Assembly: GCA_002423485.1 (NCBI GenBank)
Contig: DIWH01000011.1
Span: forward strand, 72,667 to 136,666
From: Candidatus Xenobium occultum
Lineage (GTDB): Bacteria > Vulcanimicrobiota > Xenobia > Xenobiales > Xenobiaceae
Direction: 5' to 3'
DNA length: 64,000 nt
Shown in pieces: positions 2,263 through 58,676 of the stretch; within the stretch, counting starts at the first letter, position 1, and each line of letters opens with the position of its first letter. The position numbers were made by a program, and so were the translations under genes. Below the pieces are notes generated by a model that did not search any database, had not been told where the DNA came from, and was given only the letters and a program-made list of their open reading frames with translations.

Positions 2263-2282
2263 ACCGGGAATCGGAGACGAGC

Positions 2283-4391: not shown

Positions 4392-4569
4392 GGCTATCGG
4401 CCGGCCGCTCCCGAGAAGGCTCCCGGATCCCCCGGTCGGCCCGGGGGATGACCTGAACCATGCCTTGGAGCGGGTTCGAAACGAGTTTGAAAGCCTCCAG
4501 GCGCGCTGGGAGGTCTTCCAGACGATGCCAGGGGAAGAGGAAGGGTCCGAGGGGAGGAGGACCTCGTGA
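4381..4569 (+). CDS. possible small protein (62 aa), GTG start
   Basis: It fills the 175-nt gap between two coupled genes. GTG 4381 follows a GGAGGAGG-like tract. Its stop forms a GTGA overlap with the giant gene start at 4566. GC3 bias is moderate. Confidence 0.3.
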   Translation: MGSEAIGRPLPRRLPDPPVGPGDDLNHALERVRNEFESLQARWEVFQTMPGEEEGSEGRRTS

Positions 4570-10500: not shown

Positions 10501-11978
10501 GCGGCTTCCAGGCCGTGGTGGCCCACGATGGCCGGGACGAGGTCCTGCGGGAATGGTGGAGCCGGGACCGCTTCGCCTGGGACGACGTGCGCTCCGTGGG
10601 GGTGCTGGGCTCGCACACGGTCGTGGCCCTGACCCCGGCCGGCCTGGTCCTGTGGGACCGGGACTCGGGCTCCTTCCTGGAGGCCGACATGATCCTCCAG
10701 CCGGGCTTGGAGAGGCTCCTACCCGCCCGCCGCCAGGGACGCCGGGCAGGTCTCCTGGCAATGGGACCTTCCGGCCTCTTCCTCCTGAGCGCCGGGGAGT
10801 CGCAGCAACCAGGCCTCACCGTCGCGACAACCTCCGACTACGAACACCAGCCCGGACTGGAGCTGGCACGGGTTGCGGGCGAACCGGAGCCCTTCGTCAC
10901 GCTGGTGGAACGCTGGCGCCGCGGCGACCCCAGAAGGCCCCAGGAAGCGGCCCTGGTCTCGTCGATTCCGGACTTTGAGCCCTCTCATCTCCTCACGGAC
11001 GGTCAGTTCGTCTTCGACCAGGGGCAGGCGGCCTGTCCTGTGGCCAAGGGCCCCCTCTGGGCGGTCCACGCCCCGTCAGGTCCGCGCAGCCTGGTCACCC
11101 TCAACCGACTGCTGGACTCTGCCCGGGACGGCCGACCCCGGTTGCTCCTGACCCGCGTCCTGCCTGCTCCCGCCCGATTCTCGGCCATGCGCTCCCACCC
11201 GGAAGGCTTCCTGGCCCGGGAGGTTCAGGGCAAATGGTGGCTGGCCCGGATCGCGGGGCCCGAAATCCGTTGGAGCCGACTGGAGTCCCTCGACAAGATG
11301 CCGGAACTCCGCGCCGGGGACCAGGTCGCCCTGGACGTGCAGCGCCTTTCCTGGTCCGCCACTCCACGCCACCTGGGAGACCAGGGAGTCGCTCTGAGGG
11401 TCACCCCCCCGGGCTATCCCCTCTTCGCGACCCTGGACCAGAAGACCGTGCTGGCCTTTGACGGGTTGACGTCCATCTCGGCCTTCCCCAAGACCCGCAG
11501 TCTGGCCCTGGGCACCCTGGGCGGCGTCTACACGGTCCCGTTCACCGGAAACGGAAGAGCCGTGCTGACCTTGCAGGATCCCCGGGCCCGGTTCACCTTC
11601 CGCTGGAAACCCTCGGACGAAAGCGATTCGGACTGGTTGGCGGATGTCCGAGAGGTGCGCCATGACCTGGACGGGACGCTGCACGCCCGATTCGCCCACG
11701 GGTTGGAGGTGGCGCGCCAGGGCCAGGACGGGACCTGGACCCGGGCCGAACGGATGCCCGAGGACGAGAATCGGAGCCCCCGCCACCGAATGACGGTGAT
11801 GGGAGGAAGACTGCTGCTGGACGGGCGGGCCCTGGTCACCAGCAACGACCTGCCGGCAGGACGACGAGACCTGGTGGACATCGTGGGCAAAGCCTATGAC
11901 CCCGAGGACAACGCCCTGTGGCTGGCGACCCGGAACCAGGGACTCTTCAAGCTGGTCCTGGACCGCCTGCTGGAATGA
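4566..11978 (+). CDS. giant membrane-anchored repeat protein (2470 aa); 4 N-terminal TM helices, ~330-aa loop, 5th TM helix, then ~1970 aa of W/G/R-rich beta-propeller-like repeats
   Basis: GTG 4566 is 7 nt after AGGAGG (4554-4559). The open frame is uninterrupted and strongly GC3-biased. Hydrophobic stretches lie at residues ~15-150 and ~478-498. Recurrent motifs (DGRL, GLFxYD, LWLATRNQGLFKL) resemble two-component-regulator propeller repeats. Confidence 0.75.
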   Translation: MRPDPRSRATGNPIHVLLPALLALGLPVLGVLALALLPVDRYWILGYEGLHFYRIWPWLMVAAAACIPLAGAWIHSRHGRPLHLPGMATLAVLTMLLISLRLATSWSLEWHAGMVWLSLLPLAGASLTLALGFLAFSEVWRRVCNGPVVRTLTGRLGPGRLPALRVVPERSRYARGRPWGSPHRLAVLNANFQLTLARVHSVDSPYPPDEADLRRLFRAGGALVECLLRRWPEQGPGFPWILGLPDRAQRRDLNLRTLLDMIAVGLERLRPANSPVDPSQDALATELRQVLPQWMEALEVLAGPQAPGLALVRRLVRAGLDGSAATRGCVAEIVEEARNSQTSDAGPNLSGCCPALWLLVVPDEVPGELVHDVWRELFQRVPGDGAESAPPLACEILQTQHLWRLVDRRLAHLPPLQRSGLARQKVMLEETAGRLQERVDLLMGQHGEARNPSEVTARAGAGVPSWPYWEVRRTPAVRRLVGGLAALALAPVLLALLASNPYVSPLGANTIDHVQDPRWYRPTLTGDWFDLAHSKNWLALASREGDLTLFNTRSRLPREANLESPARDVAGGMQPGSFLAITRDQGVEEVTPGAGPLGARVDLETWLPARERWGWPGPGGFEARAVLANLLDERGWLLAVRGRGLARYEFRSEPNGRRVRSRSWQYGSSPHLDLDQVALTLQGAWYSEGQGGLGFADLDTLDPVGTRSVSTPPIRRLDANFDQDWASATDKRDGLWLFDPSIERWAGAFFGHVERRTTLKSLDSVRAARLDGDLAWLGAREGLFAYDLVGRRLHPAVPGFSSTALEPRPGSDAETPRSVLAGGPLGLVRVSAGPQDFQTRRLDSEPVTSLALGEDSSTAAWLADGKSLKVLKEPFGEGRPATWVPAAGGPRMTESPTVLDARRAKDGLLLLTRAGVIYYQGTEHAYRDASRTRVPAVPSKRFSERIETLKSLDDVDVTEGRLAILGDGRPHLLQEDAEADAPLWRALDPLRLGRPVQVAQAGGLVFGLGGDGRLLRYQEAEVQTCPATPGGLPRGDSSRFQTRGDLFERSDETWRVSFVHEDRLYTYDSKSGSSRSQALASHLRGRVSQVRLVGEDPFLLADQRVFTDQGEPLFGFGSLPFAPTQVSALSPGADWQTVLVGGPEGRVLQYRWNDASWRPVGGRPLPVKSPRSTVEEVLQTPGAVLTRAEGRVFRGTSRGWAPVPDCRRAAFPLAGLSGWGLFRDHVQRMDARSSRPEGPFYCTGMTEARPRGGWRAAWQDESGLVLFSEEGSYATYDPDTDSWSSGRLQGLKELDGFTPWKGGMMVLQGKSVHRIVRDPNRGPLKPELFATAPGPARGISLASTGSKLRMSYLHGGDVVVREWEQPRGLPGEVRRRQRPIPEGFDAADVVAATPAGRGALFFDSRGACASYDPLLGRWGLLRQARPGQTVFAWVSSPRPALVLRTEDNRTHTLRTLPDLTLSERVYETPPEQVLERLEWEGCTWKAPGEGTLLETETLRITRQQGQTRYEAGRDRQWMPLHLKSTGFAEDQPTTVLMTSNGTPWILAGERLFQVQPNEASKGLAFTGRVLPGPVQAAGALAQVEIRTQDPGGLARWTEPEPGAALQAIPADSSTPLARSTIAGHEVEWVLDPAQKGIPAQVSVIPRHRDGRPTAFTEEGRLDFQTIQDLAVMNDRLLLATPTGVVVRDAQSFAFRELHAGPPVRALIRAFGPERLLARLADGRVVDWQEQGLGGEDLRGTPQGTSRVEMGPVTWSLLISGKPGVGSGLALTMKESPVEWRPSQDGWLPEMDRVARLDRLASAERALVLGTGAGSWRLDPDNLRAFEPVPAVEPEKVQGGHAALEVTAEAPVLTLRAPDDGPVFNQGRFYFDVGGGLRGLGSSIYTLVPGRGLVGRDSAAPNHILGYWPLDRQMPDGRPALAAEDGRLSLAFQSSSPSQRTRWLLPPEEGARWRRDPNPNRPERVEYGPVTWRGWRDGRSGFQAVVAHDGRDEVLREWWSRDRFAWDDVRSVGVLGSHTVVALTPAGLVLWDRDSGSFLEADMILQPGLERLLPARRQGRRAGLLAMGPSGLFLLSAGESQQPGLTVATTSDYEHQPGLELARVAGEPEPFVTLVERWRRGDPRRPQEAALVSSIPDFEPSHLLTDGQFVFDQGQAACPVAKGPLWAVHAPSGPRSLVTLNRLLDSARDGRPRLLLTRVLPAPARFSAMRSHPEGFLAREVQGKWWLARIAGPEIRWSRLESLDKMPELRAGDQVALDVQRLSWSATPRHLGDQGVALRVTPPGYPLFATLDQKTVLAFDGLTSISAFPKTRSLALGTLGGVYTVPFTGNGRAVLTLQDPRARFTFRWKPSDESDSDWLADVREVRHDLDGTLHARFAHGLEVARQGQDGTWTRAERMPEDENRSPRHRMTVMGGRLLLDGRALVTSNDLPAGRRDLVDIVGKAYDPEDNALWLATRNQGLFKLVLDRLLE

Positions 11979-41868: not shown

Positions 41869-41972
41869 GTCCCGGAAGGGGGCAACTTTCCCCACCTCGA
41901 AGCGCATGATTGGCAAGAACCGCCGGGAGACAACCGCCCAGGGGGGCCCGCTCCCGGTTGATGGGAGGTATC

Positions 41973-42986
41973 ATGTCGAGAAGAAGACTCCTCTTTCTTG
42001 GAATGCTGGTGGGCCTGTTCTTGATTGTTGCGCCGGATGGGGCCCGGGCCAGCGAGCAGGAAGAACTGGCACAGAACATGCCGGTGGCCATCGTGTCCCA
42101 GGTCCTGGGTCAGGCCCAGGTGAAGAACGTGAACGGCGACTGGCGCCCTCTGTACCTGCTGGAACTTCTCCGGCCGGAAGACCATCTCCAGACGGCGGAC
42201 GACGGCAAGGTCGTGGTCCTGTTCTTCTTTGACAACCACCTGGAGGTCCTCGACCCGACCGGTCAGGCCAAGGTTGCCTTCAAGAACCTTCAGTCCGACA
42301 CCGGCCCCGTGCGCCGGGCCGAGACCAGGAACCGAAGCCGCGGACAAATCGAGATTCCCTACATGTTGCTGCGCCGACTGCGCGTGGCCGACTTCACGCA
42401 GGCAGACGAACCCGGGGCCTACGAGAAGGAGGAAGTCTTCCTCTCGGCCTGGGTGAAGGCCACCACCTCCCCCCCGGTCTTCTACTGCAAAGACCTCCAG
42501 TTGCCCAAGTACCGATTCCAGTTCTTCAACGAATGGGACGAATTCCTGTACGAAGGGACTTCGACCGAGCCGAGATTCAAGTTCCCCTTCCAGGGCCCGG
42601 TCCAATTGACCCGCAACAGCCTGTACTACTGGCAGGTCCTGGGGCCCGACGACTCGATCGTGGTCCGCAAATACCCCTTCCGCGTCCTGACCCAACCGCT
42701 GGCCCAGCTCGTCGAGCGCAGTGAGAAGAGATTCGAGGCTCTCAAGAAGGCCAACGGCTCGACCAGCATCGACGAGACGGACATGTTCCTGCTGTACAAC
42801 ACCCAGGGTCTGGTGGACAAGAACCTTCACCTGCTGCAGGAGATGTCGCGAAAGGACCCCGAGAATCCCCTGCTCTACCGGGCCCTGGTGCGCGCCTACC
42901 TGACCCGAGGTTGCCCGGCCCATGCCCGGGAGGCATTGGACAGGGAAACCGCCCTGGGTTCCCAGGATCCCATCGAGAAGCTCTGA
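41973..42986 (+). CDS. secreted hypothetical protein (337 aa)
   Basis: ATG 41973 is 5 nt after GGGAGG. Signal peptide MSRRRLLFLGMLVGLFLIVAPDGARA. Lower GC than surroundings. Confidence 0.5.
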   Translation: MSRRRLLFLGMLVGLFLIVAPDGARASEQEELAQNMPVAIVSQVLGQAQVKNVNGDWRPLYLLELLRPEDHLQTADDGKVVVLFFFDNHLEVLDPTGQAKVAFKNLQSDTGPVRRAETRNRSRGQIEIPYMLLRRLRVADFTQADEPGAYEKEEVFLSAWVKATTSPPVFYCKDLQLPKYRFQFFNEWDEFLYEGTSTEPRFKFPFQGPVQLTRNSLYYWQVLGPDDSIVVRKYPFRVLTQPLAQLVERSEKRFEALKKANGSTSIDETDMFLLYNTQGLVDKNLHLLQEMSRKDPENPLLYRALVRAYLTRGCPAHAREALDRETALGSQDPIEKL

Positions 42987-42996
42987 GAGGACCGAG

Positions 42997-43443
42997 ATGA
43001 CCGCCCCCACCTCCAACAACGAGACGGTCCGGAAGCGCATCCTGGATTTCCTCCAACGCGTCGACCGCCTGGATGAACCTGGGGCCATCCTGGGGGGGGA
43101 CGGTCTTCCCGAGACCACCGTGTTCGAGTGTGTGGCCCAGACCTGGCCGGGTCGCCAGGTGGTCCACCTCGACTCTTCCTTCCCCTTGGAGCCAGAGAGG
43201 ATCCGACAGTCGATCCGGGACTCGTTTGTCCCCGGCCGGGTGCTCCTGATGACGCTGACCCATCGGGCCGGCCGAGACCTGTTCCGCTTCCTCGAGCAGC
43301 TCCTCGTGGAGGGGACCCTGGAGGTCCAGGCCGGGCAAGAGTGGACCCGAGTGCACCCCCCTGAACACTGGCGCCTGGTCATCCACTCGCGGCCAGGGCG
43401 CTTCCCCTTGGATGAGGCGGTGAGTTCCCGACTCGCCCTGTAG
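42997..43443 (+). CDS. hypothetical protein (148 aa)
   Basis: ATG 42997 follows GAGAGGA. The ORF-track start at 42922 adds a Pro/Arg-rich leader. Confidence 0.45.
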   Translation: MTAPTSNNETVRKRILDFLQRVDRLDEPGAILGGDGLPETTVFECVAQTWPGRQVVHLDSSFPLEPERIRQSIRDSFVPGRVLLMTLTHRAGRDLFRFLEQLLVEGTLEVQAGQEWTRVHPPEHWRLVIHSRPGRFPLDEAVSSRLAL

Positions 43444-43550: not shown

Positions 43551-45782
43551 TCAGGACTCGATCTGCTCGCGCAGCACCTCGGCCAATCGCGCGGGGAGCT
43601 TGGAGACCCGGTCCACCAGAACGGCCTCCGGATACACGTTCTCGACGTGCTCCATCCCAGAGTCGATCCCGACGCCGATGGCGTTGATGCCCAATTCCTT
43701 GGCGCGCGCCAATTCGGCTTTGAGCTGGTCCTCTTTGCCCTGGCCGTCGGTGATCACGATCATGATCTTGCGCTTGTCGGGGTCGCCCTTCCGGAGCATC
43801 TCGATGGCCGACTTCACGGCGTCCGAGTCGTTGGTCCCGCTCGAGGGGCTGCTCTCGATATCGGCCAGCATCGAGTTCCGCGAGTCCAGGGTGAACTTCT
43901 CGGCGAGATCCTTGTGGACTTTCGGGGTATCCGAGAAGCCGAGCAGACCGAAGCTGATGTCCAACTGGTCCAGCGCCTCCACGGCCAGGACCAGGGCCTG
44001 CACCGCATTGCGCCACTTGTTGTCGCCCTTCATGGAACCCGACTCGTCCAGAACGAACACGAACTCATAGCCGCGCTCGGTGGGGTTGTTCCGGCGCAAC
44101 CAGATATTGGGGTCGAACTCTCCGGTCCGCTCGTATCGGGCCTCCGCCTGCATCGCCGAGCGCATGTCCAGCTTTCGTCCCGAGGCGAAGGTCTGGCGCT
44201 GGAACTTGGGCCGGGTGTTCTCGGCCAGGAAGTTCTTCAACTCGCCCGCCAGCTCATCGGCGTAGGGGGCCACCGGACCGTGGTAACGGTCGTAGTCGGA
44301 CTTCAGGCCCTCGTACATCGACTCCATATCCTGCTTCATGCGGATCAGGTCCTCCAGATCCGGCAGGTCGATCTCCGAAGTCCCCCGTCCATCCGGGCTC
44401 CCGTTCTGGTCGCCAGACGGATTGGGGTCGCCTCCGGTCTGGTTTCCGGTCTGGTTTCCGGTCTGGTTTCCGGTCTGGCCCTGGTTGGCCTGACCGCCCT
44501 GCTGAGGCTGGCCAGGATCCTGGCCCGGCTGGGGGGCCGGTCGACCCTGTTGAGCCTGGTCGGACTTCTGGCCTGGCTGAGCCTCACCGCCACGCTTGAG
44601 GTCTCCCTGTCGGGACTCCAGCTTGTCGTTGAGCTCGCGATCCATCTCGCCGAGCACCTTCTCGGCCAGATCGCGGGCCTCTTCTGGAGTGAGGTCGGGC
44701 ATGTCCTGGGGACTGCCAGATCCCGATGGAGCGGACTGACCCGGCTGGCCGGTCTGCCCCGACGGACCGGATTGCCCCGACTGACCACCCTGGCTCTGCT
44801 GCCCCTGCTGACCTTGGAGGGCCTGGGAAAGGTTGTCGACGTCGTTCTGGATCAGCTCTTTGTAGACCGGCCAGATCTTGTTCTTGACGATGTCATAGGA
44901 CTGTTGGGCCTGCTGATCGACCTCCGCCGGGGCAAGGTCGGTCTTCAGGACGTCGCGCTTGAGGCGGATCGCCTCGCGATAGTCGCTGCGGGTCTGGTCC
45001 AGGGCCTGGTGGACCTGGGGATCGACGATGTCGGGGTCGCGCTGCCCATTGGTATACCAGTCGTAGATGACCCCGAAGCCGTACTGCATGTGCTTGGGTT
45101 GCTGCATGCCCGACTTCTCGACCACACGCCGGGCCTGGTCCGGGTTGACCCGGCCCTGGGAGGCCTCGACCAGCTTCTGGGCCATCTGCTCGCGCATTTC
45201 CGAGCGCCCTTTGAAGAGGTCCTCGTCATAGATGACCTTGAAGTAGTCCTTGGCCCCGGCATAACGCGAAATCGTGACGTTGTTGACCCGGGGATCCTCG
45301 ACGGCATTGTTCAGGAAGAGGAAGGGCTCGTTGCCCATCATCTCCTTCTCGACCAGCCAACGGGAGTACAGGCGATGAGACCCTTCGTGAAGCACGACCC
45401 CGATCCCGTAGTCCGCCGGTTTGCCCTGCAGGTCCTCCAGGCGGTAGGTGATGGTGTTGCTGGTGAAGTCGTAGGCCCAGCCAGCCCCTTCCTTCACCTG
45501 CATCTTGAAGTCGCCGCCCACCGAGCGACCGATGGATTCGATCCGATGCAACCGCTGGCGTAATTCACGCTCGAGGGCCTTGTCGCGGGTGGGGTCCGAG
45601 GCTGCGGGTGCCTGCACCGGCGCGCCCTGTGCCGGCGGTGGCGAGGCCGTCCTGGCCAGGCGGGCGTCCCCCCCCAGCTCCACGCGATCCTGGGGCGGGG
45701 CCTGGTCCGTGCCCTGGGCCTTGGACAAGGTGGCTCGGCGCACCTCGAGGGGCGCCACGTCCACTCGGCGGATCTCAGTCAT
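43551..45782 (-). CDS. vWA-domain protein with N-terminal HExxH metallopeptidase-like domain (DUF2201/COG3864-like) and long Q/G/P-rich linker
   Basis: N-terminal IGVVLHEGSHRLY (HExxH). C-terminal FVFVLDESGSMKG (MIDAS DxSxS) ... IMIVITDGQ. A low-complexity linker separates the two domains. Located downstream of the AAA gene. Confidence 0.7.
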   Translation of the reverse strand: MTEIRRVDVAPLEVRRATLSKAQGTDQAPPQDRVELGGDARLARTASPPPAQGAPVQAPAASDPTRDKALERELRQRLHRIESIGRSVGGDFKMQVKEGAGWAYDFTSNTITYRLEDLQGKPADYGIGVVLHEGSHRLYSRWLVEKEMMGNEPFLFLNNAVEDPRVNNVTISRYAGAKDYFKVIYDEDLFKGRSEMREQMAQKLVEASQGRVNPDQARRVVEKSGMQQPKHMQYGFGVIYDWYTNGQRDPDIVDPQVHQALDQTRSDYREAIRLKRDVLKTDLAPAEVDQQAQQSYDIVKNKIWPVYKELIQNDVDNLSQALQGQQGQQSQGGQSGQSGPSGQTGQPGQSAPSGSGSPQDMPDLTPEEARDLAEKVLGEMDRELNDKLESRQGDLKRGGEAQPGQKSDQAQQGRPAPQPGQDPGQPQQGGQANQGQTGNQTGNQTGNQTGGDPNPSGDQNGSPDGRGTSEIDLPDLEDLIRMKQDMESMYEGLKSDYDRYHGPVAPYADELAGELKNFLAENTRPKFQRQTFASGRKLDMRSAMQAEARYERTGEFDPNIWLRRNNPTERGYEFVFVLDESGSMKGDNKWRNAVQALVLAVEALDQLDISFGLLGFSDTPKVHKDLAEKFTLDSRNSMLADIESSPSSGTNDSDAVKSAIEMLRKGDPDKRKIMIVITDGQGKEDQLKAELARAKELGINAIGVGIDSGMEHVENVYPEAVLVDRVSKLPARLAEVLREQIES
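44434..44479. repeat. 12-bp tandem repeat (ccggtctggttt x3.8) inside the vWA gene linker, encoding (TGNQ)n on the coding strand
   Basis: Three perfect copies and one partial copy. In-frame, so copy-number change would alter linker length without a frameshift. Confidence 0.6.
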
Positions 45783-45855
45783 CGTTTGAGGCTCCTTGTA
45801 TGACCATCCGGGAGAACACCGCCCGGATCAGGGCAACTGCCCGGGCGGGAGGGGC

Positions 45856-48066
45856 TCAGAGCTGCTCGGCAAACGAGCGGGCCAGCGCCTCGACGTTCTT
45901 GCGCTCGTCCTCGTCGCTGATGGCGTCCATGTAGACGTGCATGGCCCCGTCCACGAAGGTCTGCTTGTTGTCGGCGGCCTCGGGGCCGAAGACCTTCATG
46001 AACTTCGAGAAGGCCTTCAGGTCGCGCAGGGTGTAAACGAACCCATCCTTCCGGGCGGAGGCCAGGTCCCCGCTTTCGACCTTCGAACGGATGTCGTAGT
46101 GGAACTTGACCATCTGCTCGGCGATCTTGTCGCCCCCCTCCACCTTCTTCATCCAGCCGGCCACGATGGTCGTCGTCTCGCCGACATCGGTCAGCTCGGG
46201 GAACCACTGCTCGGTGAAGCGGTTGCGCATGGCCAGGGAGAGGTCGCGCCGGCCCGCGTACTGGGACGTGGCCGGGTTCATGGTGGCGAAGACCCGGAAA
46301 TTCGGATCCGCCTCGACCTTCTCGCCGTTGTGCTCGGTCAGCACGATGGCACGGTCGTCGTCCAGAAGCGAATTGAGACGCTCGAGGATGGAGGGCTCGG
46401 CCAGGTTGATCTCGTCGAGGACCACCCAGTCGCCATTCTTCATGGCGGTGATCAGGGTGCCGTCCCGCCAGGTGTACTCGCCCGGCTTGGGTCTGCCGGT
46501 GGTCGGGTCCGTGGCCGGAACGTAGCCGCCGATCAACTCGGAGGTGTCCGTCTGCAAGCTGAGGTTGAAGCGGTGCAGGTTCCGGTTGTCCAGGTGGGCC
46601 AGATAGCGCACGTAGGACGTCTTGCCGGAAGCCGTCGGGCCGACCAGCAGGACCGGCTCGTCCAGGGCCGCCGACTTGGCCAGGCGCGTCAGCTTCTGCA
46701 CCGTGGAGGGCGTGTTGAAGAGCCGAGCCGACTCGTCGGGGACCAGCGTCCCTCCCTCGCCTTTGTCCAGGACCGCCTCGCCAATACGGACCTGCTGGGG
46801 CTGTTCCTCGACCGTGATGTCGAGATCGCGGGTCGGGGGCTCGTTGGCTTTGCCGAAGGTCAGGGCCAGGACGTCATCCACCACCTGGCGATCGTCGTCG
46901 TTGATGAAGCGAGCCTGGTAGACCTCTCGAGCCTCCTTCCAGAGGATCTGTTCGGTGCTCAACCCGGAGGTGGCGAACTTCTCGACCCGCTTGTTCCACT
47001 TCAAGACGTCCCGCAGCGTGAAGGGATAGGGGCCACCCTTCTTGCCGATCTGGCGGTGCTCGGACATGTCCGCCATCTGCTTGTGGAACATGACCATCTG
47101 AAGGACGGTCTTCTCGGGCAGCTTGGACTTGGCCTGGATGATCTCGACCATCTCCTCAGGCTTCATGCCCTCGACCCAGGTCTTGTGGAAGCGGTTCATC
47201 ATCGCCGCCGAGAGCTCTTTGCGACCCGCGTAGGAGGCCGGGTTCATGGTCGCAAAGATTCGGGTACTCTCGTCAGCTCGGACAATCTCGGGGCCCTTGT
47301 CGCCGGCGCCCTTCTCGGTCAGGACCAGGAAACGGTCGTCGTCCAGCAGCGAGTTGAGCCGCTCGAGGATGGCCGGTTCGGCCAGGTTGATCTCGTCGAA
47401 GAGGATCCACTGCCCCTGCTTGAGGGCCTCGACCACCACGCCGTCGTGCCACTCCGGGCGGCCATCCTGCCCCGGCTTGTAGCCCCCGACGATCTCGACC
47501 ACATCGGTCATGTCGTTGAGGTTGATCCGGCGCAGCTCGTTGTTGGTCAGATGGGCCAGGTACTTGACCAGCGACGTCTTGCCTGCTCCGGTGGGGCCGG
47601 TCATGAGGACGTTTTCGTTCAGCTTGACCGAGCGGGCCAGCTTCTCGAGGTTCTTGACCGTGGTCGGGGTGTGGATCAACCTCGACCTCTCGTCGGGAAC
47701 CCAGGAGTGGGCCTTGGAAGCGGACGGCGCCTCCTGGGACGTGGTCGCGCTGGCCTGGGCCACCGGGACGCCAGGCTCATCCACAGGCTGAGCCGGAGGC
47801 TCTTCCAGGAAGAGGGTCTCGGGCACTCCCTGCGACCGCGGTGGCGCGGAAGCGCCGGCCGGCACACTCGCCTGTGCCGCCTGCGAGCCGGCAGCGGAAA
47901 TCGCCGGGGCGGCTGCTGAGCCAGGGCTGACATGACCGGCAGCGGGGTTCAACTGGACCGAGTCCTGGGCGCTGGGAACCGATATTCCGGGTTCCGGGGC
48001 CACCCGGCGGGCGCCGGGAAGCGGCGTCTGCGCGCTCTGACCGGGCTGAACCTTGATGCTGTCCAT
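45856..48066 (-). CDS. tandem AAA_5 (MoxR/dynein-related) ATPase, two complete AAA modules
   Basis: Two Walker A motifs (GPTGAGKTS, GPTASGKTS). Two Walker B motifs (ILFDEINLAEP, VVLDEINLAEP). Duplicated ILERLNSLLDDDR and TMNPA motifs. ATG 48066 is 6 nt after GGGAGGA. Confidence 0.8.
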   Translation of the reverse strand: MDSIKVQPGQSAQTPLPGARRVAPEPGISVPSAQDSVQLNPAAGHVSPGSAAAPAISAAGSQAAQASVPAGASAPPRSQGVPETLFLEEPPAQPVDEPGVPVAQASATTSQEAPSASKAHSWVPDERSRLIHTPTTVKNLEKLARSVKLNENVLMTGPTGAGKTSLVKYLAHLTNNELRRINLNDMTDVVEIVGGYKPGQDGRPEWHDGVVVEALKQGQWILFDEINLAEPAILERLNSLLDDDRFLVLTEKGAGDKGPEIVRADESTRIFATMNPASYAGRKELSAAMMNRFHKTWVEGMKPEEMVEIIQAKSKLPEKTVLQMVMFHKQMADMSEHRQIGKKGGPYPFTLRDVLKWNKRVEKFATSGLSTEQILWKEAREVYQARFINDDDRQVVDDVLALTFGKANEPPTRDLDITVEEQPQQVRIGEAVLDKGEGGTLVPDESARLFNTPSTVQKLTRLAKSAALDEPVLLVGPTASGKTSYVRYLAHLDNRNLHRFNLSLQTDTSELIGGYVPATDPTTGRPKPGEYTWRDGTLITAMKNGDWVVLDEINLAEPSILERLNSLLDDDRAIVLTEHNGEKVEADPNFRVFATMNPATSQYAGRRDLSLAMRNRFTEQWFPELTDVGETTTIVAGWMKKVEGGDKIAEQMVKFHYDIRSKVESGDLASARKDGFVYTLRDLKAFSKFMKVFGPEAADNKQTFVDGAMHVYMDAISDEDERKNVEALARSFAEQL

Positions 48067-48234
48067 GTGAGTCCTCCCTGGAAGACCTGCCGGGAGCCCG
48101 GAATCCTGTCGACGAAATCCAGAAGGCAGACCGGCATGGTTGGGCCTGTTTGATCCTTCCAAAGATAGCCTTCCCGTCTCCCAACCGTCCAATGCCAGGA
48201 TGATAACATCCCGACAGGTCAGGAGTTCCCCGAA

Positions 48235-49032
48235 TCAGGGCGTCTGGGGCGCGGGAGGGGTCTCTGGCCCGGCTGAGGGTACAGGGCCAGCGGTTCCGGC
48301 GGGGGCGACCGGGCTGACAGGCGCCGCCACGCCTTCGGACCCTGCCGCAGGGGCTTCCGGAGCCGCTCCGATCCCAGTCGCCAACCCGGCCAGAATCTGC
48401 TCGACGGCTCGTCCCATCAGATGGAAGCCGGTGGGGGGACGACCAAAGCGAACCGTGGAGGCGATGCGGGAAAATTCCGCGATCTCGGCGGCCAGGTTCG
48501 GGCCCTCCGGTGCGGTCCCCAGCATCACGAAGCCTCGGGCGGGGCCTTCCTGAGTGGCGGGACGAGTGAAGAACCACGCGCGACAGGCCACGTTTCGCCC
48601 CTCCTCCTGCCGTGAGAAGCCCAGCCACGGACCCACCGAATCCTCCCCCTCCTCAGGGGTGCCGACCAGGGTTCCGGTGCTGCGCAGTTCGGCCAGTTGC
48701 CTCTGTCGGAACACGGCCGGACTGAGGTCCTGCTCGAGGTCCTGGACGGTCAGCACCAGGTTCTCGCGGAAGCCCCCGCTCTCCGGGGTCAATGGCTTGA
48801 AGGCCACGACCACCGCTCGGTCGATGCCCCGGCGCAGCTCCCAGTAGCGATCCTCGCCGCCGGGCTTCTCGGCCAGGGAGATCAGGGGGACGCTGAAGGA
48901 GATCCCCTCTCCGTAGAAGCGGCCGATCTGCCCGCTGTGGTGGGTTGCCTGGGGTGCGGCGCAACCCGAAGCACCGAAGAGGGCAAGCCCGGCGAGCAAC
49001 ATGAAAAGGTTCCGGATGGTGGCTGAACGCAT
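48235..49032 (-). CDS. lipoprotein, function unknown
   Basis: Signal peptide with lipobox LFGASGC. Followed 168 nt later by the AAA gene on the same strand. Confidence 0.55.
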   Translation of the reverse strand: MRSATIRNLFMLLAGLALFGASGCAAPQATHHSGQIGRFYGEGISFSVPLISLAEKPGGEDRYWELRRGIDRAVVVAFKPLTPESGGFRENLVLTVQDLEQDLSPAVFRQRQLAELRSTGTLVGTPEEGEDSVGPWLGFSRQEEGRNVACRAWFFTRPATQEGPARGFVMLGTAPEGPNLAAEIAEFSRIASTVRFGRPPTGFHLMGRAVEQILAGLATGIGAAPEAPAAGSEGVAAPVSPVAPAGTAGPVPSAGPETPPAPQTP

Positions 49033-49115: not shown

Positions 49116-49988
49116 TCAGGGTCTGGGGTTTCGAGATCGATGCCGACGACGTCGGGAAAGCAGGAGGCGTGCCAGCCAGTGCCGAGTCTGCCGGGTCCGT
49201 GCCTCCAGCGCCTCCCTCATCACGGCAGCCGACTCCGGGCGCCGCGCGGGGTCCACGTCGAGGCAGCGGCTCAACAGGTCCTCCATCTCCAAGGAAAGCG
49301 CCGGATTGAACTCCCGCGCCGGTGGGAAGGCAAAGCCAAAGGGCTGAGGATCCCGGGCCGTGAGGAGCTCGAAGAGGGTGGCGCCGAGCGCGTACAGATC
49401 CGAGCGGGTCTCGGCGCGGCCCTGGTACTGCTCGGGCGGCGCGTATCCCGGCGTCCCGTAGGCCGTGGTGTCCCCGGGTCGGCCTGGACGCATCGGACGC
49501 GCGATTCCGAAGTCCACCAGCTTCAGTGGACCACGGACCGAGACCATCACGTTCGACGGCTTGAGATCGCGGTAGACCACCGGCGGTCTCAGGCCGTGCA
49601 GGTAGCCCAGGACCTCGCAGATCTGCACCCCCCAGGAGGCCACCAGGGCTTCTTCCAGAGGTTCGGCACGGCTGCGCAGGACGTCCGCCAGGGTCGGCCC
49701 TTCGACCCTCTCCATCACCAGGAATTCGCGACCATCCTGGGTGAACCGGTGCAGGACCCGAGGCAGCGATGGATGGCGCAGGCGAAGCAGGATGCCGGCC
49801 TCCCGCTCGAAGAGCTCGAGGGCTTCGGGCCGGTCTGCCGGACAGATGGCCCGGAAGTCCAACTCCTTGACGGCCCAGACACGCCCTCGCTCGCGCGTGT
49901 CTCGGGCCAGCCAGACCCGACTCGAAGCGCCCTCCCCCAGAAGGCGTTCGACCCGATAGCGCCCCGCCAGCAGGATGCCTGGTTCCAC
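49116..49988 (-). CDS. Ser/Thr protein kinase (catalytic domain only)
   Basis: GTG 49988 starts immediately after the ABC gene TAG. AVKEL, YRDLKPSNVMV, VDFGIA and APE motifs are all intact. Confidence 0.7.
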   Translation of the reverse strand: MEPGILLAGRYRVERLLGEGASSRVWLARDTRERGRVWAVKELDFRAICPADRPEALELFEREAGILLRLRHPSLPRVLHRFTQDGREFLVMERVEGPTLADVLRSRAEPLEEALVASWGVQICEVLGYLHGLRPPVVYRDLKPSNVMVSVRGPLKLVDFGIARPMRPGRPGDTTAYGTPGYAPPEQYQGRAETRSDLYALGATLFELLTARDPQPFGFAFPPAREFNPALSLEMEDLLSRCLDVDPARRPESAAVMREALEARTRQTRHWLARLLLSRRRRHRSRNPRP

Positions 49989-49990
49989 GC

Positions 49991-51076
49991 CTACTCCAGG
50001 TCGATCCCCTCGGTCATGCGGAGGTAGACCTCCTGGAGATCCCAGGCCTCGTCCGCGAAGCTGACCACGGGGAAGCCCTTCTCGAAGAGCAAGCGGTTCA
50101 GCTTCGCCAGTTCCCTGTCCTCCCCGGCGAACTCCAGGACCAGTTGTTCCTCCTGCCAGGCGACCGAACGGACGCCGGGAGTTCCCTCCAGAAAGAGCCG
50201 ACACTCCTCTCCCCTCTCCAGCAGCCGGACCCGCACCCTGCGGGTCCCACGCAACCGGGAGACCACCTGACGGGTCTCGCCGAAGAGCAGGAGCTGCCCT
50301 TTGGCGAGAATCCCGACCTTGTTGCAGAAATCAGCCAGGTCCGAGAGGATGTGGGAGGAGACGATCAGGGTCTTGCCCCTCTTCTGCAGCCCCTTGAGGA
50401 TGTCGGCCAGTTCGACCCGCGCCCGAGGATCCAGACCGGCTGCGGGTTCGTCCAGAAGGAACAGGGCGGGATCGTGCATCAGCAGACGAGCCAGACCCAG
50501 GCGCTGCTTCTGCCCCCGAGAGAGGCCTTCCACCGGATTCTCGGCCAGGCGGGTCAACCGGGTGGTCTCCAAGGCCTCGGCGATCACGAAGTCCCGATGA
50601 TGGGCGGGCACCTTGTAGGCGCGGGCGAAGAACTCGAGGTATTCCCGAACCAGGAGATCGTCGTAGACGCCCAGGAAATCGGGCATGAACCCGACCCGGG
50701 CGCGCACCTCGGCCACCTGTTTCAACGAGAAGCCGGCGATGCGGGCCTCCCCGGCATCGGGGGCCAGGACGGTGGCCAACATCCGCAGGGTCGTCGTCTT
50801 GCCTGCCCCGTTGGGGCCCAGGAAGCCGAAGATGTCCCCAGGGTAGAGCTTCAAGGACAATTCGTTGACGGCCAGGGTCGAACCGTAGCTCTTGGTCAGC
50901 CCCCGGACCTCCAGGACCGGCTCCACTCCGGGCGAGGGCTCCTCCAACGTGCGCGGGTGGGGGTCGGGACCGGGTGCAGACCAGCGCGGGACCGAGTCTT
51001 CCTCGGGGCGCGGGGTTCGGACGGGGCCGGCGCCTTCGGGCTCGAGGTGGCGGGTCTGGGGATCGATCTGGCTCAT
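49991..51076 (-). CDS. ABC transporter ATP-binding protein with Pro-rich N-terminal extension; no adjacent permease
   Basis: Walker A GPNGAGKTT, signature LSRGQKQRL, Walker B LFLLDEP. ATG 51076 overlaps the upstream TGA (ATGA). Confidence 0.75.
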   Translation of the reverse strand: MSQIDPQTRHLEPEGAGPVRTPRPEEDSVPRWSAPGPDPHPRTLEEPSPGVEPVLEVRGLTKSYGSTLAVNELSLKLYPGDIFGFLGPNGAGKTTTLRMLATVLAPDAGEARIAGFSLKQVAEVRARVGFMPDFLGVYDDLLVREYLEFFARAYKVPAHHRDFVIAEALETTRLTRLAENPVEGLSRGQKQRLGLARLLMHDPALFLLDEPAAGLDPRARVELADILKGLQKRGKTLIVSSHILSDLADFCNKVGILAKGQLLLFGETRQVVSRLRGTRRVRVRLLERGEECRLFLEGTPGVRSVAWQEEQLVLEFAGEDRELAKLNRLLFEKGFPVVSFADEAWDLQEVYLRMTEGIDLE

Positions 51077-52158
51077 GGCTCGGGGCTTCGACGGCCCCCA
51101 CTCGCCTTCCCCTGGCTTTGCGACGACGCCCATTCCAGGCGCTCCAGAAAGCCTCGAGGATCGCGGTGGAAGGCCCCCTCCGGCAGGTCTCCCCGGGCCA
51201 GGGCCGTCAGGGTTTCCGCCAGGAAACGGTTCACGGGAGCTTCCAGCCCCAGCCGGGCGGCCTCGAGGGCGATGGCACCGTTCATCCACTCCACCTCCGT
51301 CCTGGCGCGACCCGCCCGCAGGTCCAGCAGCAGGGAGGGAGGCTTGTCTCCCCGGCCTGACGCCATTCTCGGTGCCAGCAGGGGAAAAGCCAGTGCCTCC
51401 GGCAACCAGCGAACGGCACGGGCCAGCAGTCGCACCGGATAGCCCGGAAGGTCGACCACGGCCAGGCCCCTCCGGCGCATCACCCGCAGGGCCTCACGCA
51501 GCGCCTGCAACTCGACTCGGAAGAGATCCCGCTCGGCCAGGAGTTGTCGGCAGGACAGGTCCAGGATGGCGCAGGAAGCGTTGGCGACCATGTTCAGCAG
51601 CAGCTTGGACCACTTCATGGCGGCTGCGTCGGCCAACACGGCGACGGGAACCCCCTGGGCTGCCAGGCGCGCAGGGAGGTCTCCTGGGATCTCCCCCCGC
51701 GCCAGGGGAGCCAGGGCCAGGCCTCCCCGTGACCCGGGGCGCAGGACCCCCGGATCCGGGCAGGCCACCGCGCGGGTCACCGAGCCCACGAAGGTCCTGG
51801 CCTTCCCGAAACAGGCCGCCACCTGGTCCTCGGTGCCGAGTCCATTCTGGATGGCCAGGACGCGGGTGGGGTTCAACCCGGCCTGCTGCGCCTGGGCCAG
51901 GGCGGCCTCGACTGCGAAGGTCTTGACGGCCAGGACCAGCCACTCGAACCGTCGCTGCTCCTGAGGGAGGTCCTCCAGGCTGGCGATGGCCCGGACCGGG
52001 AGATTCTCCTGGGCACCCTCCACCTCCAGGCCACGCACGCGCAGGACTTCCAGATGAGGAGGTCGGGCCAGGAGGGTGACCTCGGTCCCGGAGCATGCCA
52101 GAAGGCCACCGAGCCACTGCCCGATGGCCCCCGCTCCCAGGACCAGGACCCTGGACAC
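51073..52158 (-). CDS. 2-dehydropantoate 2-reductase family (ApbA/PanE-like)
   Basis: N-terminal Rossmann motif VLVLGAGAIGQWLGG and the ApbA-family C-terminal domain. Confidence 0.7.
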   Translation of the reverse strand: MSRVLVLGAGAIGQWLGGLLACSGTEVTLLARPPHLEVLRVRGLEVEGAQENLPVRAIASLEDLPQEQRRFEWLVLAVKTFAVEAALAQAQQAGLNPTRVLAIQNGLGTEDQVAACFGKARTFVGSVTRAVACPDPGVLRPGSRGGLALAPLARGEIPGDLPARLAAQGVPVAVLADAAAMKWSKLLLNMVANASCAILDLSCRQLLAERDLFRVELQALREALRVMRRRGLAVVDLPGYPVRLLARAVRWLPEALAFPLLAPRMASGRGDKPPSLLLDLRAGRARTEVEWMNGAIALEAARLGLEAPVNRFLAETLTALARGDLPEGAFHRDPRGFLERLEWASSQSQGKASGGRRSPEP

Positions 52159-57287: not shown

Positions 57288-58592
57288 TCATTCCTGCCCG
57301 ACGACCGGCGCGCGCATCGCCTCGAGGGGCGGGACCGTGTCCAGCAACTGGGTCAACTTGCGGGTTCCGTACTCCAGCTTCTTGGTTCCGGCCGAGGTGG
57401 CGGCGGCGCCCTGCTCGATCCGAGTCGCCTCGGCCAGGGCCTGGTCGGCCAGGTCCTTCTGACCCTGCTGGAGGAGTTGGGTGGCCGCCGAGCGCAGCAA
57501 CTGGGTCGCCTTGGACCGGTCTCCAGCCTGGGCCAGTTCCAGCGCCCGCGTCTGCTGGCGGAAGACGCTGACCGCATCGATGACCTGCATCACCCGCGGG
57601 GTAACCCTCGAGGCCTGGTTGGGATCCGAGGTATAGGCAATCGTGATGTCCGAGGAGACCGTCGAGCTGGGGGCAGGCTGTCCCGGCATGTCGTAGGAGA
57701 GGGAAGCCTGGGCGATCCGGTAGGTCCCGGACTGGCGCGAAGGAAGGACCAGCTCGAAGAGCAGCGACTGGGTCTCCTCCTTCTGCAGATCCGTCAAACG
57801 GATGCTGCAGGTGCGGTCGATGACGGGCACGGCCCCCAGGTCGTTGATCAGCGGCTTGACCTTGTAGGCCCTGCGGACGTTCACATCCTTGGCCAGCTTG
57901 AGGCGGATCTCGGGGTTCCGGACCACCACGTTCTGGACCCCTCGCAGCTCACCTTCGAAGATGGAGGGGATGTCCCGAGGCATGTCGATGTAGTAGGAGG
58001 TTCCTCGACACGAGTTGGCGATATCCAGAAGGAGCTTCTCGTTGAAATCGTCGCCGACCCCGATGGTCGAAACCGAGATGCCCTCCTCGGTCGCCAGGAT
58101 GCACTTCTCCTTGCAGCGCGCCTCGTGAAGCGTCAGTCCGTCGGTCAGGAGGATGATGTGGTTCATCCGGTCGCGCGAGAAGTTGCGTCGAACCTCCTCC
58201 ACCGCCGCGTTGATCCCGTGCAGCATCTCGGTCCCGGACCCCACGTCGATCTGGTCGATCTTGCGGACCATCTGCCGCGCCGAGTTCTTGTCGTAGATCT
58301 GGCTGGACGGAATCAACACTCGGGCCTTGTCGGCGAAGGCGATCAAGGCACACAGGTCGTTGGGACGCAACTGCTCGATCACGTGGCTGACCGCATTGAT
58401 CACGTAATCGAGCTTCTGCGCGGCGTACATCGAGCCGCTCTTGTCCAGAACGATGGCCAGGTTCAAGGCCGCGGGACCGCTGCCGATCTCGGGCCCGGGC
58501 CGGACATCCGCCAGCAGGTACACGAGCTTGCTCTCGCTGGTGGTCATCACGGCCTGATAGCTCAGGTAGGTTACGAGATTGACTTCGGCCAC
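57288..58592 (-). CDS. vWA-domain protein
   Basis: LAIVLDKSGSM (MIDAS) ... ILLTDGL. GTG 58592 is 6 nt after GGAGGAA. Confidence 0.65.
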   Translation of the reverse strand: MAEVNLVTYLSYQAVMTTSESKLVYLLADVRPGPEIGSGPAALNLAIVLDKSGSMYAAQKLDYVINAVSHVIEQLRPNDLCALIAFADKARVLIPSSQIYDKNSARQMVRKIDQIDVGSGTEMLHGINAAVEEVRRNFSRDRMNHIILLTDGLTLHEARCKEKCILATEEGISVSTIGVGDDFNEKLLLDIANSCRGTSYYIDMPRDIPSIFEGELRGVQNVVVRNPEIRLKLAKDVNVRRAYKVKPLINDLGAVPVIDRTCSIRLTDLQKEETQSLLFELVLPSRQSGTYRIAQASLSYDMPGQPAPSSTVSSDITIAYTSDPNQASRVTPRVMQVIDAVSVFRQQTRALELAQAGDRSKATQLLRSAATQLLQQGQKDLADQALAEATRIEQGAAATSAGTKKLEYGTRKLTQLLDTVPPLEAMRAPVVGQE

Positions 58593-58676
58593 GTCGTTTC
58601 CTCCACTATGGTTGGGACCCCAGAAATGAGGGCCTGCACTCGCCCCGGGGTGGCTCCGGAGGCGCACTCTTCCCGT

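Follow-up and report, generated by a model that had tools for sequence, protein, structure and literature searches.

Two adjacent genes of Candidatus Xenobium occultum probably encode a split, miniature counterpart of midasin

We analysed a stretch of 64,000 nucleotides from Candidatus Xenobium occultum (contig DIWH01000011.1, positions 72,667 to 136,666 of the forward strand), called the window below and numbered from its first nucleotide. Listing and translation of its open reading frames (ORFs) showed four consecutive genes on the minus strand, encoding a vWA protein, a tandem AAA+ ATPase, a lipoprotein-like protein and a Ser/Thr kinase. A preliminary description of this DNA had assigned the ATPase and the vWA protein to a MoxR-type module of an essentially uncharacterised class. 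We likewise found no published description of the class and the assignment to AAA_5 was right, but the MoxR-type label proved too coarse, both proteins being specifically midasin-like. We present here the midasin homology of the two proteins, their conservation as a gene pair, their fusion within single giant chains of prokaryotes, a model in which the ATPase modules lie side by side and the antiquity of the split between these modules. Collectively, these data lead us to propose that the two genes (43551-48066, minus strand) are probably a split, miniature bacterial counterpart of midasin, a trimer-of-tandems ring ATPase that would pull on clients through a tethered MIDAS adaptor.

Results

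A tandem ATPase and a MIDAS protein are encoded by adjacent genes

The tandem ATPase gene (45856..48066, minus strand) is followed by the partner gene (43551..45782, minus strand), which encodes 743 residues and has its own ribosome-binding site (AAGGAG); 73 nucleotides separate the ATPase stop codon from the partner start. The ATPase ORF as listed (45856-48192) opens with a TTG codon at 48192 and encodes 778 residues. The ATG at 48066 is the likely start, because a GGGAGGA ribosome-binding site precedes it and homologues begin with MDSIK or MDSIR, and the predicted protein is hence 736 residues long (plus stop), not 778. The closest homologue has a length of 736 residues. Codon-position GC in both ORFs was typical of genuine genes (GC3 0.85-0.87), in a window with a GC content of about 67%. 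The two genes that follow downstream, both on the plus strand (41910-42986 and 42922-43443), converge on the vWA gene, which therefore closes the transcription unit. The machine is probably cytoplasmic, because inspection revealed no signal peptide or hydrophobic segment in either protein.

The ATPase starts with an A/S/P-rich region of about 122 residues (47701..48066, minus strand), probably disordered; beyond the first residues, neither its length nor its sequence was kept among homologues. Unit 1 (46783..47700, minus strand) comprises an alpha/beta domain and a midasin-type lid, with the Walker A motif GPTGAGKT at 47575-47598, and unit 2 (45859..46743, minus strand) comprises an alpha/beta domain and a lid, with GPTASGKT at 46618-46641. 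The Walker B motif was intact in both (ILFDEINLA and VVLDEINLA), and ILERLNSLLDDDR and ATMNPA were present in units 1 and 2 alike. Pfam identified two AAA_5 stretches (E 1e-55; 188 bits) and two stretches of AAA_lid_7, the 'Midasin AAA lid domain' of Pfam (72 bits versus a cut-off of 22.7). Two complete units of the dynein/MoxR class, with all four motifs duplicated, had been noted before and are confirmed here. The H2 hairpin was about 10 residues longer in unit 2 than in unit 1, at the site of the midasin H2-alpha inserts.

The nearest relatives of the ATPase outside its own family are eukaryotic midasins

Against all PDB sequences, the top matches of the ATPase were yeast and fission-yeast Rea1/Mdn1 (E 4e-179, with 6-7 matched stretches); the same search gave NorQ at E 6.5e-14 and CbbQ at E 4e-11. 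An exhaustive phmmer search was run over 1.84 billion cluster representatives. The best 150 matches listed were mostly midasins, plus the ATPase's own family and a handful of prokaryotic giants. Outside that family they were proteins of about 2000-6200 residues, mostly 4400-5600, with 31-39% identity over 4-9 matched stretches, and they included the UniRef 'Midasin' of Blastobotrys. Leading the list behind that family were midasins 4800-5500 residues long, with 33-36% identity, along with the prokaryotic giants. As judged by these searches, after its own small family the nearest relatives of the ATPase are eukaryotic midasins (Rea1/Mdn1) and not generic MoxR proteins. Eukaryotic midasins matched the gene pair through the AAA modules and the MIDAS domain only.

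The family itself amounted to about 50 clusters at 90% identity among 5.8 billion. Its members came from metagenome-assembled genomes (MAGs) labelled Eremiobacterota/Xenobia/Vulcanimicrobiota, Armatimonadota, Firmicutes, Acidobacteria, Omnitrophota and Oligoflexales, and several carried the automatic name 'midasin' from the Joint Genome Institute (JGI) pipeline. The nearest genome was the MAG 'bacterium UBP9_UBA1432', whose ATPase is 98% identical. Members with a length of 840-1145 residues (L018/P0028, P0033, P0026, P0036, P0040, P0076, P0078) had an SH3_3-like insert (Pfam PF08239) in or near unit 2; in P0028 this insert follows helix 2 and does not occupy the midasin H2-alpha site.

Alternatively, the pair could serve in the maturation of one enzyme, as an ordinary MoxR-vWA chaperone like NorQ/NorD, CbbQ/CbbO or CobS/CobT that inserts a metal into this enzyme or remodels it, with the tandem arrangement being cosmetic. 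It follows the same two-gene logic with the same AAA_5 class: in NorQ-NorD, CbbQ-CbbO, CobS-CobT, CoxD-CoxE and RavA-ViaA, an ATPase of the helix-2-insert clade adjoins a gene for a vWA/MIDAS partner. NCBIfam models for CobS (TIGR01650, E 6.6e-12) and GvpN (E 6e-27) matched the ATPase weakly, yet these scores lie far under the curated cut-offs (45 versus 558 bits and 95 versus 267 bits, respectively), and NorQ and CobS were 10-100 orders of magnitude worse than midasin. Together with the absence of a conserved client enzyme described below, these scores make a chaperone of this kind unlikely. The known systems have one AAA module per chain and assemble as homohexamers; here two differentiated modules were found throughout the family.

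The partner carries a midasin-type MIDAS domain behind a low-complexity linker

The C-terminal part of the partner is a MIDAS (vWA) domain with a midasin-type N-terminal extension (43554..44372, minus strand). Pfam placed VWA at residues 575-709 (E 4e-18), while VWA, VWA_2 and VWA_CoxE together spanned residues 512-709; CobT_C matched weakly (E 6e-4). The MIDAS site was intact, with DESGS at residues 579-583 (44034-44048) and the downstream T and D. The translation and the Pfam VWA match bear out the earlier account of a partner combining HEGSH, a Q/G/P linker and an intact MIDAS vWA domain.

The best PDB match was the Rea1 MIDAS domain (6qt8, E 6e-6), in an alignment that begins about 70 residues ahead of the first beta-strand. 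When the window protein was aligned by MAFFT with six orthologues, three giants and four eukaryotic midasins, the MIDAS domains were collinear from the extension (…GELKNFL…SGRKLDMR…IWLRR..P..R) through the C-terminus, with one additional large insertion in the eukaryotic domains. A phmmer search with the partner domain recovered eukaryotic midasin MIDAS domains at E 1e-15 to 1e-11, and Devosia CobT stayed below threshold in the same search. The collinearity with the eukaryotic domains takes in the pre-beta1 extension (GKRLN..IWLRR..P..R). On these comparisons, the partner MIDAS domain is specifically midasin-like.

The linker ahead of this domain (44373..44816, minus strand; residues ~323-470) is of low complexity (G 21%, Q 20%, P 10%, S 9%), with a net charge of -9. 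Its length ranged from about 150 to about 590 residues among orthologues. It contains a perfect 12-nucleotide tandem repeat in three overlapping copies (44433-44478, minus strand), encoding GNQT-GNQT-GNQT. The roughly four-fold variation in linker length among orthologues suggests that the linker expands and contracts by slippage. Within the linker, a conserved helical island of about 35 residues (…LTPEEARDLAEKVLGEMDRELNDKLE…; 44598..44702, minus strand) was kept in the partners at the related loci L016, L017 and L018 and was not detected in giants or eukaryotic midasins.

The succession of an N-domain, an acidic low-complexity linker and a vWA domain also describes CobT, including that of Devosia, and together with the weak CobT_C match it is a further point on the side of a maturation chaperone.

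The N-domain has an HExxH motif that is kept in most orthologues

The N-terminal part of the partner holds a conserved domain, called the N-domain here (44817..45587, minus strand; residues ~66-322). A hidden Markov model (HMM) of this domain matched all partner proteins of the related loci (E 1e-35 to 1e-97) plus four fused giants. Word-indexed protein searches with the domain, either as a single sequence or as a nine-sequence profile, returned only 1-2 fragments. The DUF2201-type label proposed previously had to be dropped: no Pfam family, DUF2201_N (PF13203) included, matched the full protein at E up to 0.1 or the nine N-domains searched singly at E up to 10. The pair resembles the combination of DUF2201_N and VWA in having an HExxH N-terminal domain ahead of the vWA domain, beside a MoxR-class ATPase; it differs in the lack of a DUF2201_N match and in its tandem, midasin-like ATPase. 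Ahead of the N-domain, the partner N-termini (45588-45782 in the window; also in L016 and L018) were disordered and had short motifs in common, which may be docking peptides. The first is a start motif in L016 and L018, MG(I/F)(I/L)D(G/S)IKS.FG, and the second, D(R/K)V.(I/L)(S/G)GG, takes the form QDRVELGGD in the window.

The N-domain of the window protein contains HEGSH (45375-45389, minus strand; residues 132-136) and, about 25 residues after it, AVEDPRVNN with E162/D163 (45279-45305, minus strand). HExxH was kept in the window protein, at L001-L003, L016, L018 and L022, in all giants and in two fragments. Both histidines were replaced at L017, L020 and L023 (NEAAK, AEAAR and REVAK), and at L021 the first alone was lost (RESGH); the glutamate was invariant across N-domains. 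In the same four orthologues (A/I)VEDPRVNN becomes E(A/S/E)ARTGN or EQIRINR, and all four retain the N-domain, the MIDAS domain and the ATPase. The joint loss of the two motifs suggests one functional, probably metal-binding, site that a subclade abandoned, and the persistence of the domain without HExxH points to an additional, non-catalytic role. In the predicted secondary structure, the helix with HExxH comes after three strands, an order that would suit a minimal zincin, and the N-domain may be zincin-like.

These features would suit an ATP-dependent protease, in which the ring unfolds substrates recruited by the MIDAS domain and the HExxH N-domain is an obligatory peptidase. HExxH and AVEDPRVNN persist in the window protein and the four giants as well as in most orthologues, with the Glu invariant; their joint loss suggests one functional site; and a MoxR-vWA-peptidase degradation system has been proposed for another operon type by Zhang & Aravind (PMC3495828). 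Against this stand the four orthologues that have altered the motif while keeping the domain, the MIDAS and the ATPase, and the lack of any match to a peptidase family by sequence or, in a low-confidence model, by fold. The suggestion of a metallopeptidase in the preliminary description is plausible but unproven. HExxH is not universal in the family, and an obligatory protease appears quite unlikely to us.

A profile of the N-domain gave only matches at E~1 in the PDB, to the CobT chain 21vu_H and to an amino-acid oxidase. Alignment with Devosia CobT N-domains by hhalign was not significant (P=0.087 over 33 columns), and the marginal likeness centred on FLxNAVEDPRV / AYDALEQARVE. This likeness, which would favour a CobS/CobT-type chaperone, is suggestive as a lead only.

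Six-module prokaryotic giants combine the parts of both proteins in one chain

Four giant proteins (from Omnitrophota and one Thermoproteota MAG) were found to carry, in a single chain, six AAA_5 modules followed by the N-domain and lastly the MIDAS domain: P0094 (7557 residues), P0241 (7592), P0095 (6708) and P0097 (4005), the last annotated at NCBI as 'AAA family ATPase [Thermoproteota archaeon]' (MFC1753351.1). The partial protein P0099 from Candidatus Omnitrophota (MDD5437092.1) has the same layout. The giants match the pair in module types, in an N-domain that keeps HExxH and EDPRVNN, in the MIDAS domain and in the order of these parts. They differ from it in being one fused chain with six modules, in their extra N-terminal residues and in an insert carried by the N-domain. 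The part-for-part fusion indicates that the two genes of the window form one machine, and the predicted domain order of the giants is the midasin architecture in prokaryotes.

All five proteins have 700-4000 further N-terminal residues and gaps of 500-900 residues between module pairs. The modules of P0097 are spaced as 2+2, gap, 2, and those of the other giants as 2, gap, 4.

Units 1 and 2 correspond to the odd and even modules of midasin

Units 1 and 2 were 43% identical as proteins, and the best match between their DNA was 138 nucleotides at 77% identity. This divergence indicates an old duplication; a misassembled repeat, the artefact that the preliminary description had named as a danger to its reading, was rejected on both counts.

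A neighbour-joining tree of 108 AAA modules was built from 251 trimmed columns with 200 bootstraps. Unit 1 of all two-module proteins formed one clade (m1, 87% bootstrap) and unit 2 another (m2, 75%), which places the duplication before the family. Within each giant lineage, odd modules grouped together and even modules grouped together (65-100%), near m1 and m2 respectively. Eukaryotic AAA2, AAA4 and AAA6 fell on the unit-2 side of the tree (47%; AAA2+AAA4 74%).

Since the backbone of this tree was unsupported, we added a tree-free test, in which HMMs made from twelve bacterial unit-1 and unit-2 sequences were scored on 94 midasins with six recognised modules; these midasins are mutually related and are not independent trials. 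AAA1, AAA3 and AAA5 favoured the unit-1 HMM by +20, +16.5 and +36 bits (in 99%, 93% and 100% of the 94 midasins, respectively), and AAA2, AAA4 and AAA6 favoured the unit-2 HMM by 14, 25 and 8 bits (96%, 100% and 87%). Even so, the alternation across all six modules is clear, and the four giants showed the same odd/even pattern. In Rea1, it is AAA2, AAA4 and AAA6 that bear H2-alpha inserts (PMC6286127), an alternation that matches that of units 1 and 2. Collectively, the duplication, the clades and the HMM scores show the split between unit 1 and unit 2, as defined by sequence, to be ancient.

The same tree bears on whether the pair might be the relic of a eukaryotic midasin gene fragment acquired by horizontal transfer, an origin to which the eukaryotic identity of its closest characterised relatives could point. 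The codon-position GC of the genes is native to the host genome, and the family is spread over several bacterial phyla and an archaeal MAG. Units 1 and 2 lie outside the well-supported eukaryotic AAA3 (99%) and AAA4 (100%) clades, the prokaryotic proteins do not have the eukaryotic H2-alpha inserts, and they carry an N-domain that was not detected in eukaryotic midasins. A transferred relic is hardly credible in view of these observations.

The two modules are modelled as neighbours in one ring

An AlphaFold2 (AF2) model of ATPase residues 160-778 (numbered as in the 778-residue ORF), built from a 42-sequence alignment, had a predicted local distance difference test score (pLDDT) of 89.2 and a predicted template modelling score (pTM) of 0.85. 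In a Foldseek search of the PDB, the top 50 matches were all dynein motor domains or Rea1 (617-732 columns, query-normalised TM-score 0.58-0.69), with neither ClpB nor p97 among them. A TM-score above 0.5 over the whole length requires that both modules are superposed, so that the model has them as neighbours in one ring and not stacked. The model shows the ATPase modules side by side, as ring neighbours.

A stacked two-tier hexamer with twelve modules, as in type II AAA+ proteins such as ClpB or p97, would be the alternative to a planar trimer with six modules, and most known bacterial tandem-AAA proteins are stacked double rings. Here, the confident model sets one module beside the other, each of its top 50 matches is a planar ring formed by a single chain (dynein, Rea1), and the giants have exactly six modules in alternating order. 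A stacked assembly is improbable on this evidence.

The ATPase-partner pair is conserved without its neighbours

Partner proteins were collected through the contigs of ATPase homologues, and ten related loci were recovered, from Eremiobacterota-like, Armatimonadota, 'Firmicutes', Oligoflexales and other MAGs. A tandem ATPase and then a partner with the N-domain and a C-terminal vWA domain were encoded in ten out of ten. The partner usually followed directly; an ORF of 132 residues intervened in one locus and the partner was split into two ORFs in another.

The ORFs immediately upstream of the pair encode the lipoprotein-like protein (48235..49032, minus strand; 265 residues, with a signal peptide ending in ...GASGC), which had no match in Pfam or NCBIfam, and the Ser/Thr protein kinase (49116..50204, minus strand; Pkinase E 1.5e-39). 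The kinase ORF as listed overlaps the end of the upstream ABC-transporter ATPase gene (49991-51289, minus strand) by about 210 nucleotides, and similarity to the kinases of relatives begins around residue 63-73. The kinase probably starts downstream of 49991, where the ABC-ATPase gene ends, which would give a protein of about 290 residues. Only the three near-identical relatives L001-L003 shared the lipoprotein, kinase and upstream ABC ATPase genes with the window, along with the convergent genes downstream. The seven distant loci had unrelated flanks, including RF-1/L31/SecG, PilZ, glycosyltransferases, a two-component system and biotin carboxylase, which indicates that the conserved system is the two-gene pair. 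Lipoprotein and kinase were therefore rejected as parts of it: the preliminary description had their positions upstream on the same strand right, but neither their membership of the module nor a conserved lipoprotein-ATPase-vWA order extended beyond L001-L003, while the ATPase-partner order was constant.

Two of the distant loci had arrangements of their own. At L016 ('Firmicutes' MAG, 5507-10160), the pair lies directly downstream of secG, rpmE (L31), tdk and prfA (RF-1), a translation-related neighbourhood that was seen once only. At L022 (11292-14400), the pair is directly followed by a second, longer AAA_5 protein of at least 1428 residues, which extends beyond the end of the locus. This arrangement points to paralogues of the system or to versions with several components.

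No candidate client enzyme, such as cytochrome c-dependent nitric oxide reductase (cNOR), rubisco, CobN or carbon monoxide dehydrogenase (CODH), was conserved beside the pair in any locus, unlike in the MoxR/vWA pairs, which have defined client enzymes encoded nearby.

The patchy distribution of the pair and its variable neighbourhoods would also be in keeping with a role in conflict or phage defence, as in the 'ternary' MoxR-vWA systems (Kaur et al. 2020). The bpMoxR model matched the ATPase weakly, at 36 bits (Pfam cut-off 27), far less than the 188 bits of AAA_5, and in the P-loop region only (profile positions 28-126 of 205, about half of the model), and the upstream kinase matched the PADLOC models PD-T4-6/Mad6, which are generic Ser/Thr kinase profiles. 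PADLOC found nothing for the partner, however, and generic P-loop matches only for the ATPase; no third component or effector was conserved and the kinase did not accompany the pair. On 72,556 plasmids and 50,697 phage records there was no tandem homologue, only single-module AAA_5 genes with less than 32% identity. A role in defence is very improbable.

Elsewhere in the window, a second MoxR-type module had been reported at the 5' edge and could not be confirmed: the plus-strand ORFs 2-646, 646-2262, 2187-4391 and 4491-11978 had no Pfam match and no Walker A motif. The last of these encodes 2495 residues with gene-like codon GC and no recognisable domain. A second, unrelated vWA protein is encoded at 57288-58676 (minus strand; 462 residues, Pfam VWA E 5e-20). 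Its identity with the partner MIDAS domain is 29% over 139 residues, and tblastn found no AAA_5 gene beside it.

Discussion

The data presented indicate that a bacterial ATPase and its partner share a specific set of features with midasin. Midasin, a giant motor of ribosome assembly in eukaryotes, removes assembly factors with a ubiquitin-like (UBL) domain (Ytm1, Rsa4) from pre-60S particles, and the bacterial host has neither these factors nor these particles. In both systems, AAA_5 units with midasin-type lids occur as two module types, which alternate as AAA1-6 in midasin; a MIDAS domain with the same N-terminal extension stands at the end of a long disordered tether; and the modelled modules lie side by side as ring neighbours. 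The pair differs in having two modules per chain, not six, and in a MIDAS domain that is encoded by a separate gene and follows a Q/G-rich tether of 150 residues with a net charge of -9. It also has no midasin N-terminal domain and no structured linker of about 1700 residues (stem, middle, top), the ATPase ending at the lid of unit 2. H2-alpha inserts and the large MIDAS insertion are missing as well, and the HExxH N-domain is extra.

On the strength of homology and of published work on relatives, we hypothesize that the machine would work as follows. Three tandem chains would close into a six-module ring in which odd and even modules alternate, (odd, even) x3, as they do within the one chain of midasin. 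The partner would be the adaptor: its conserved N-domain would anchor it, its disordered Q/G-rich linker would serve as a flexible tether that lets the MIDAS domain reach its target, and the C-terminal MIDAS would grip an acidic residue of the client through its metal site. The helical island of the linker may have a role as well. The MIDAS domain would dock on the ring, and ATP-driven movements of the modules would pull on or remodel the client. Where HExxH is intact, the N-domain may bind zinc and cut or process the client. Docking of the MIDAS domain on the ring has been described for Rea1, whose D/E-rich acidic tether remains flexible (PMC6286127). MoxR/vWA pairs use a finger-in-pore mechanism, the vWA finger of NorQD sitting in the AAA pore (PMC13036017).

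Several points weigh against this proposal. The closure of a six-module ring by three chains and the docking of the MIDAS domain on it are extrapolated and not computed. The pair has no counterpart of the Rea1 linker of about 1700 residues, which is thought to transmit force, and its tether is Q/G-rich, not D/E-rich. The genes next to the pair were different in every distant locus. The backbone of the module tree had bootstrap values of only 5-16% and was obtained by neighbour-joining alone. For the N-domain, the AF2 model (from a 3-sequence alignment) was poor, with a pLDDT of 49.8, and a Foldseek search of the PDB with this low-confidence model gave nothing at E<0.8, the mini-zincin selecase appearing at E~2.3. 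Finally, the loss of HExxH in four orthologues implies that catalysis is not essential to the family. Despite these points, we consider a split counterpart of midasin the probable nature of the pair.

MoxR has been described as the nearest prokaryotic homologue of the dynein and midasin modules, with the step to six modules placed early in eukaryotes (PMC3495828). A 2026 paper (PMC13036017) regards MoxR-like ATPases as confined to prokaryotes and mentions Rea1 solely as a parallel from eukaryotes. Full-text searches of the literature turned up no account of midasin-like proteins with tandem or six modules in prokaryotes; they did not cover Garbarino & Gibbons 2002 and Iyer et al. 2004, where a brief mention is possible.

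The alternation of two module types raises the question of how six-module rings arose. To our knowledge, midasin and dynein are the only well-known AAA+ machines with six ring modules in one chain. A two-module ATPase with a separate MIDAS adaptor might be the surviving ancestral form of midasin. The combination of units 1 and 2 would then predate the split between prokaryotes and eukaryotes, and six-module rings would have arisen by its repeated, independent triplication and by fusion with the adaptor: in Omnitrophota-type giants, in an archaeal lineage and in the stem of the eukaryotes that led to midasin and perhaps, at an earlier point, to dynein. We put this forward tentatively, as an account that may well be wrong. 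If true, it would replace the picture of a single-module MoxR protein becoming a six-module protein early in eukaryotic evolution.

The pair is of interest mainly for its bearing on how the midasin ring originated, and as a small model system. The bacterial two-module form, the prokaryotic six-module fusions and the odd/even pattern in 94 midasins together supply a concrete intermediate and a route by which the ring could have arisen and which can be tested: triplication from two modules to six, followed by fusion. At about 80 kDa and 82 kDa, compared with 550 kDa for Rea1, the pair could also be a tractable model for the coupling of a tethered MIDAS domain to an AAA+ ring.

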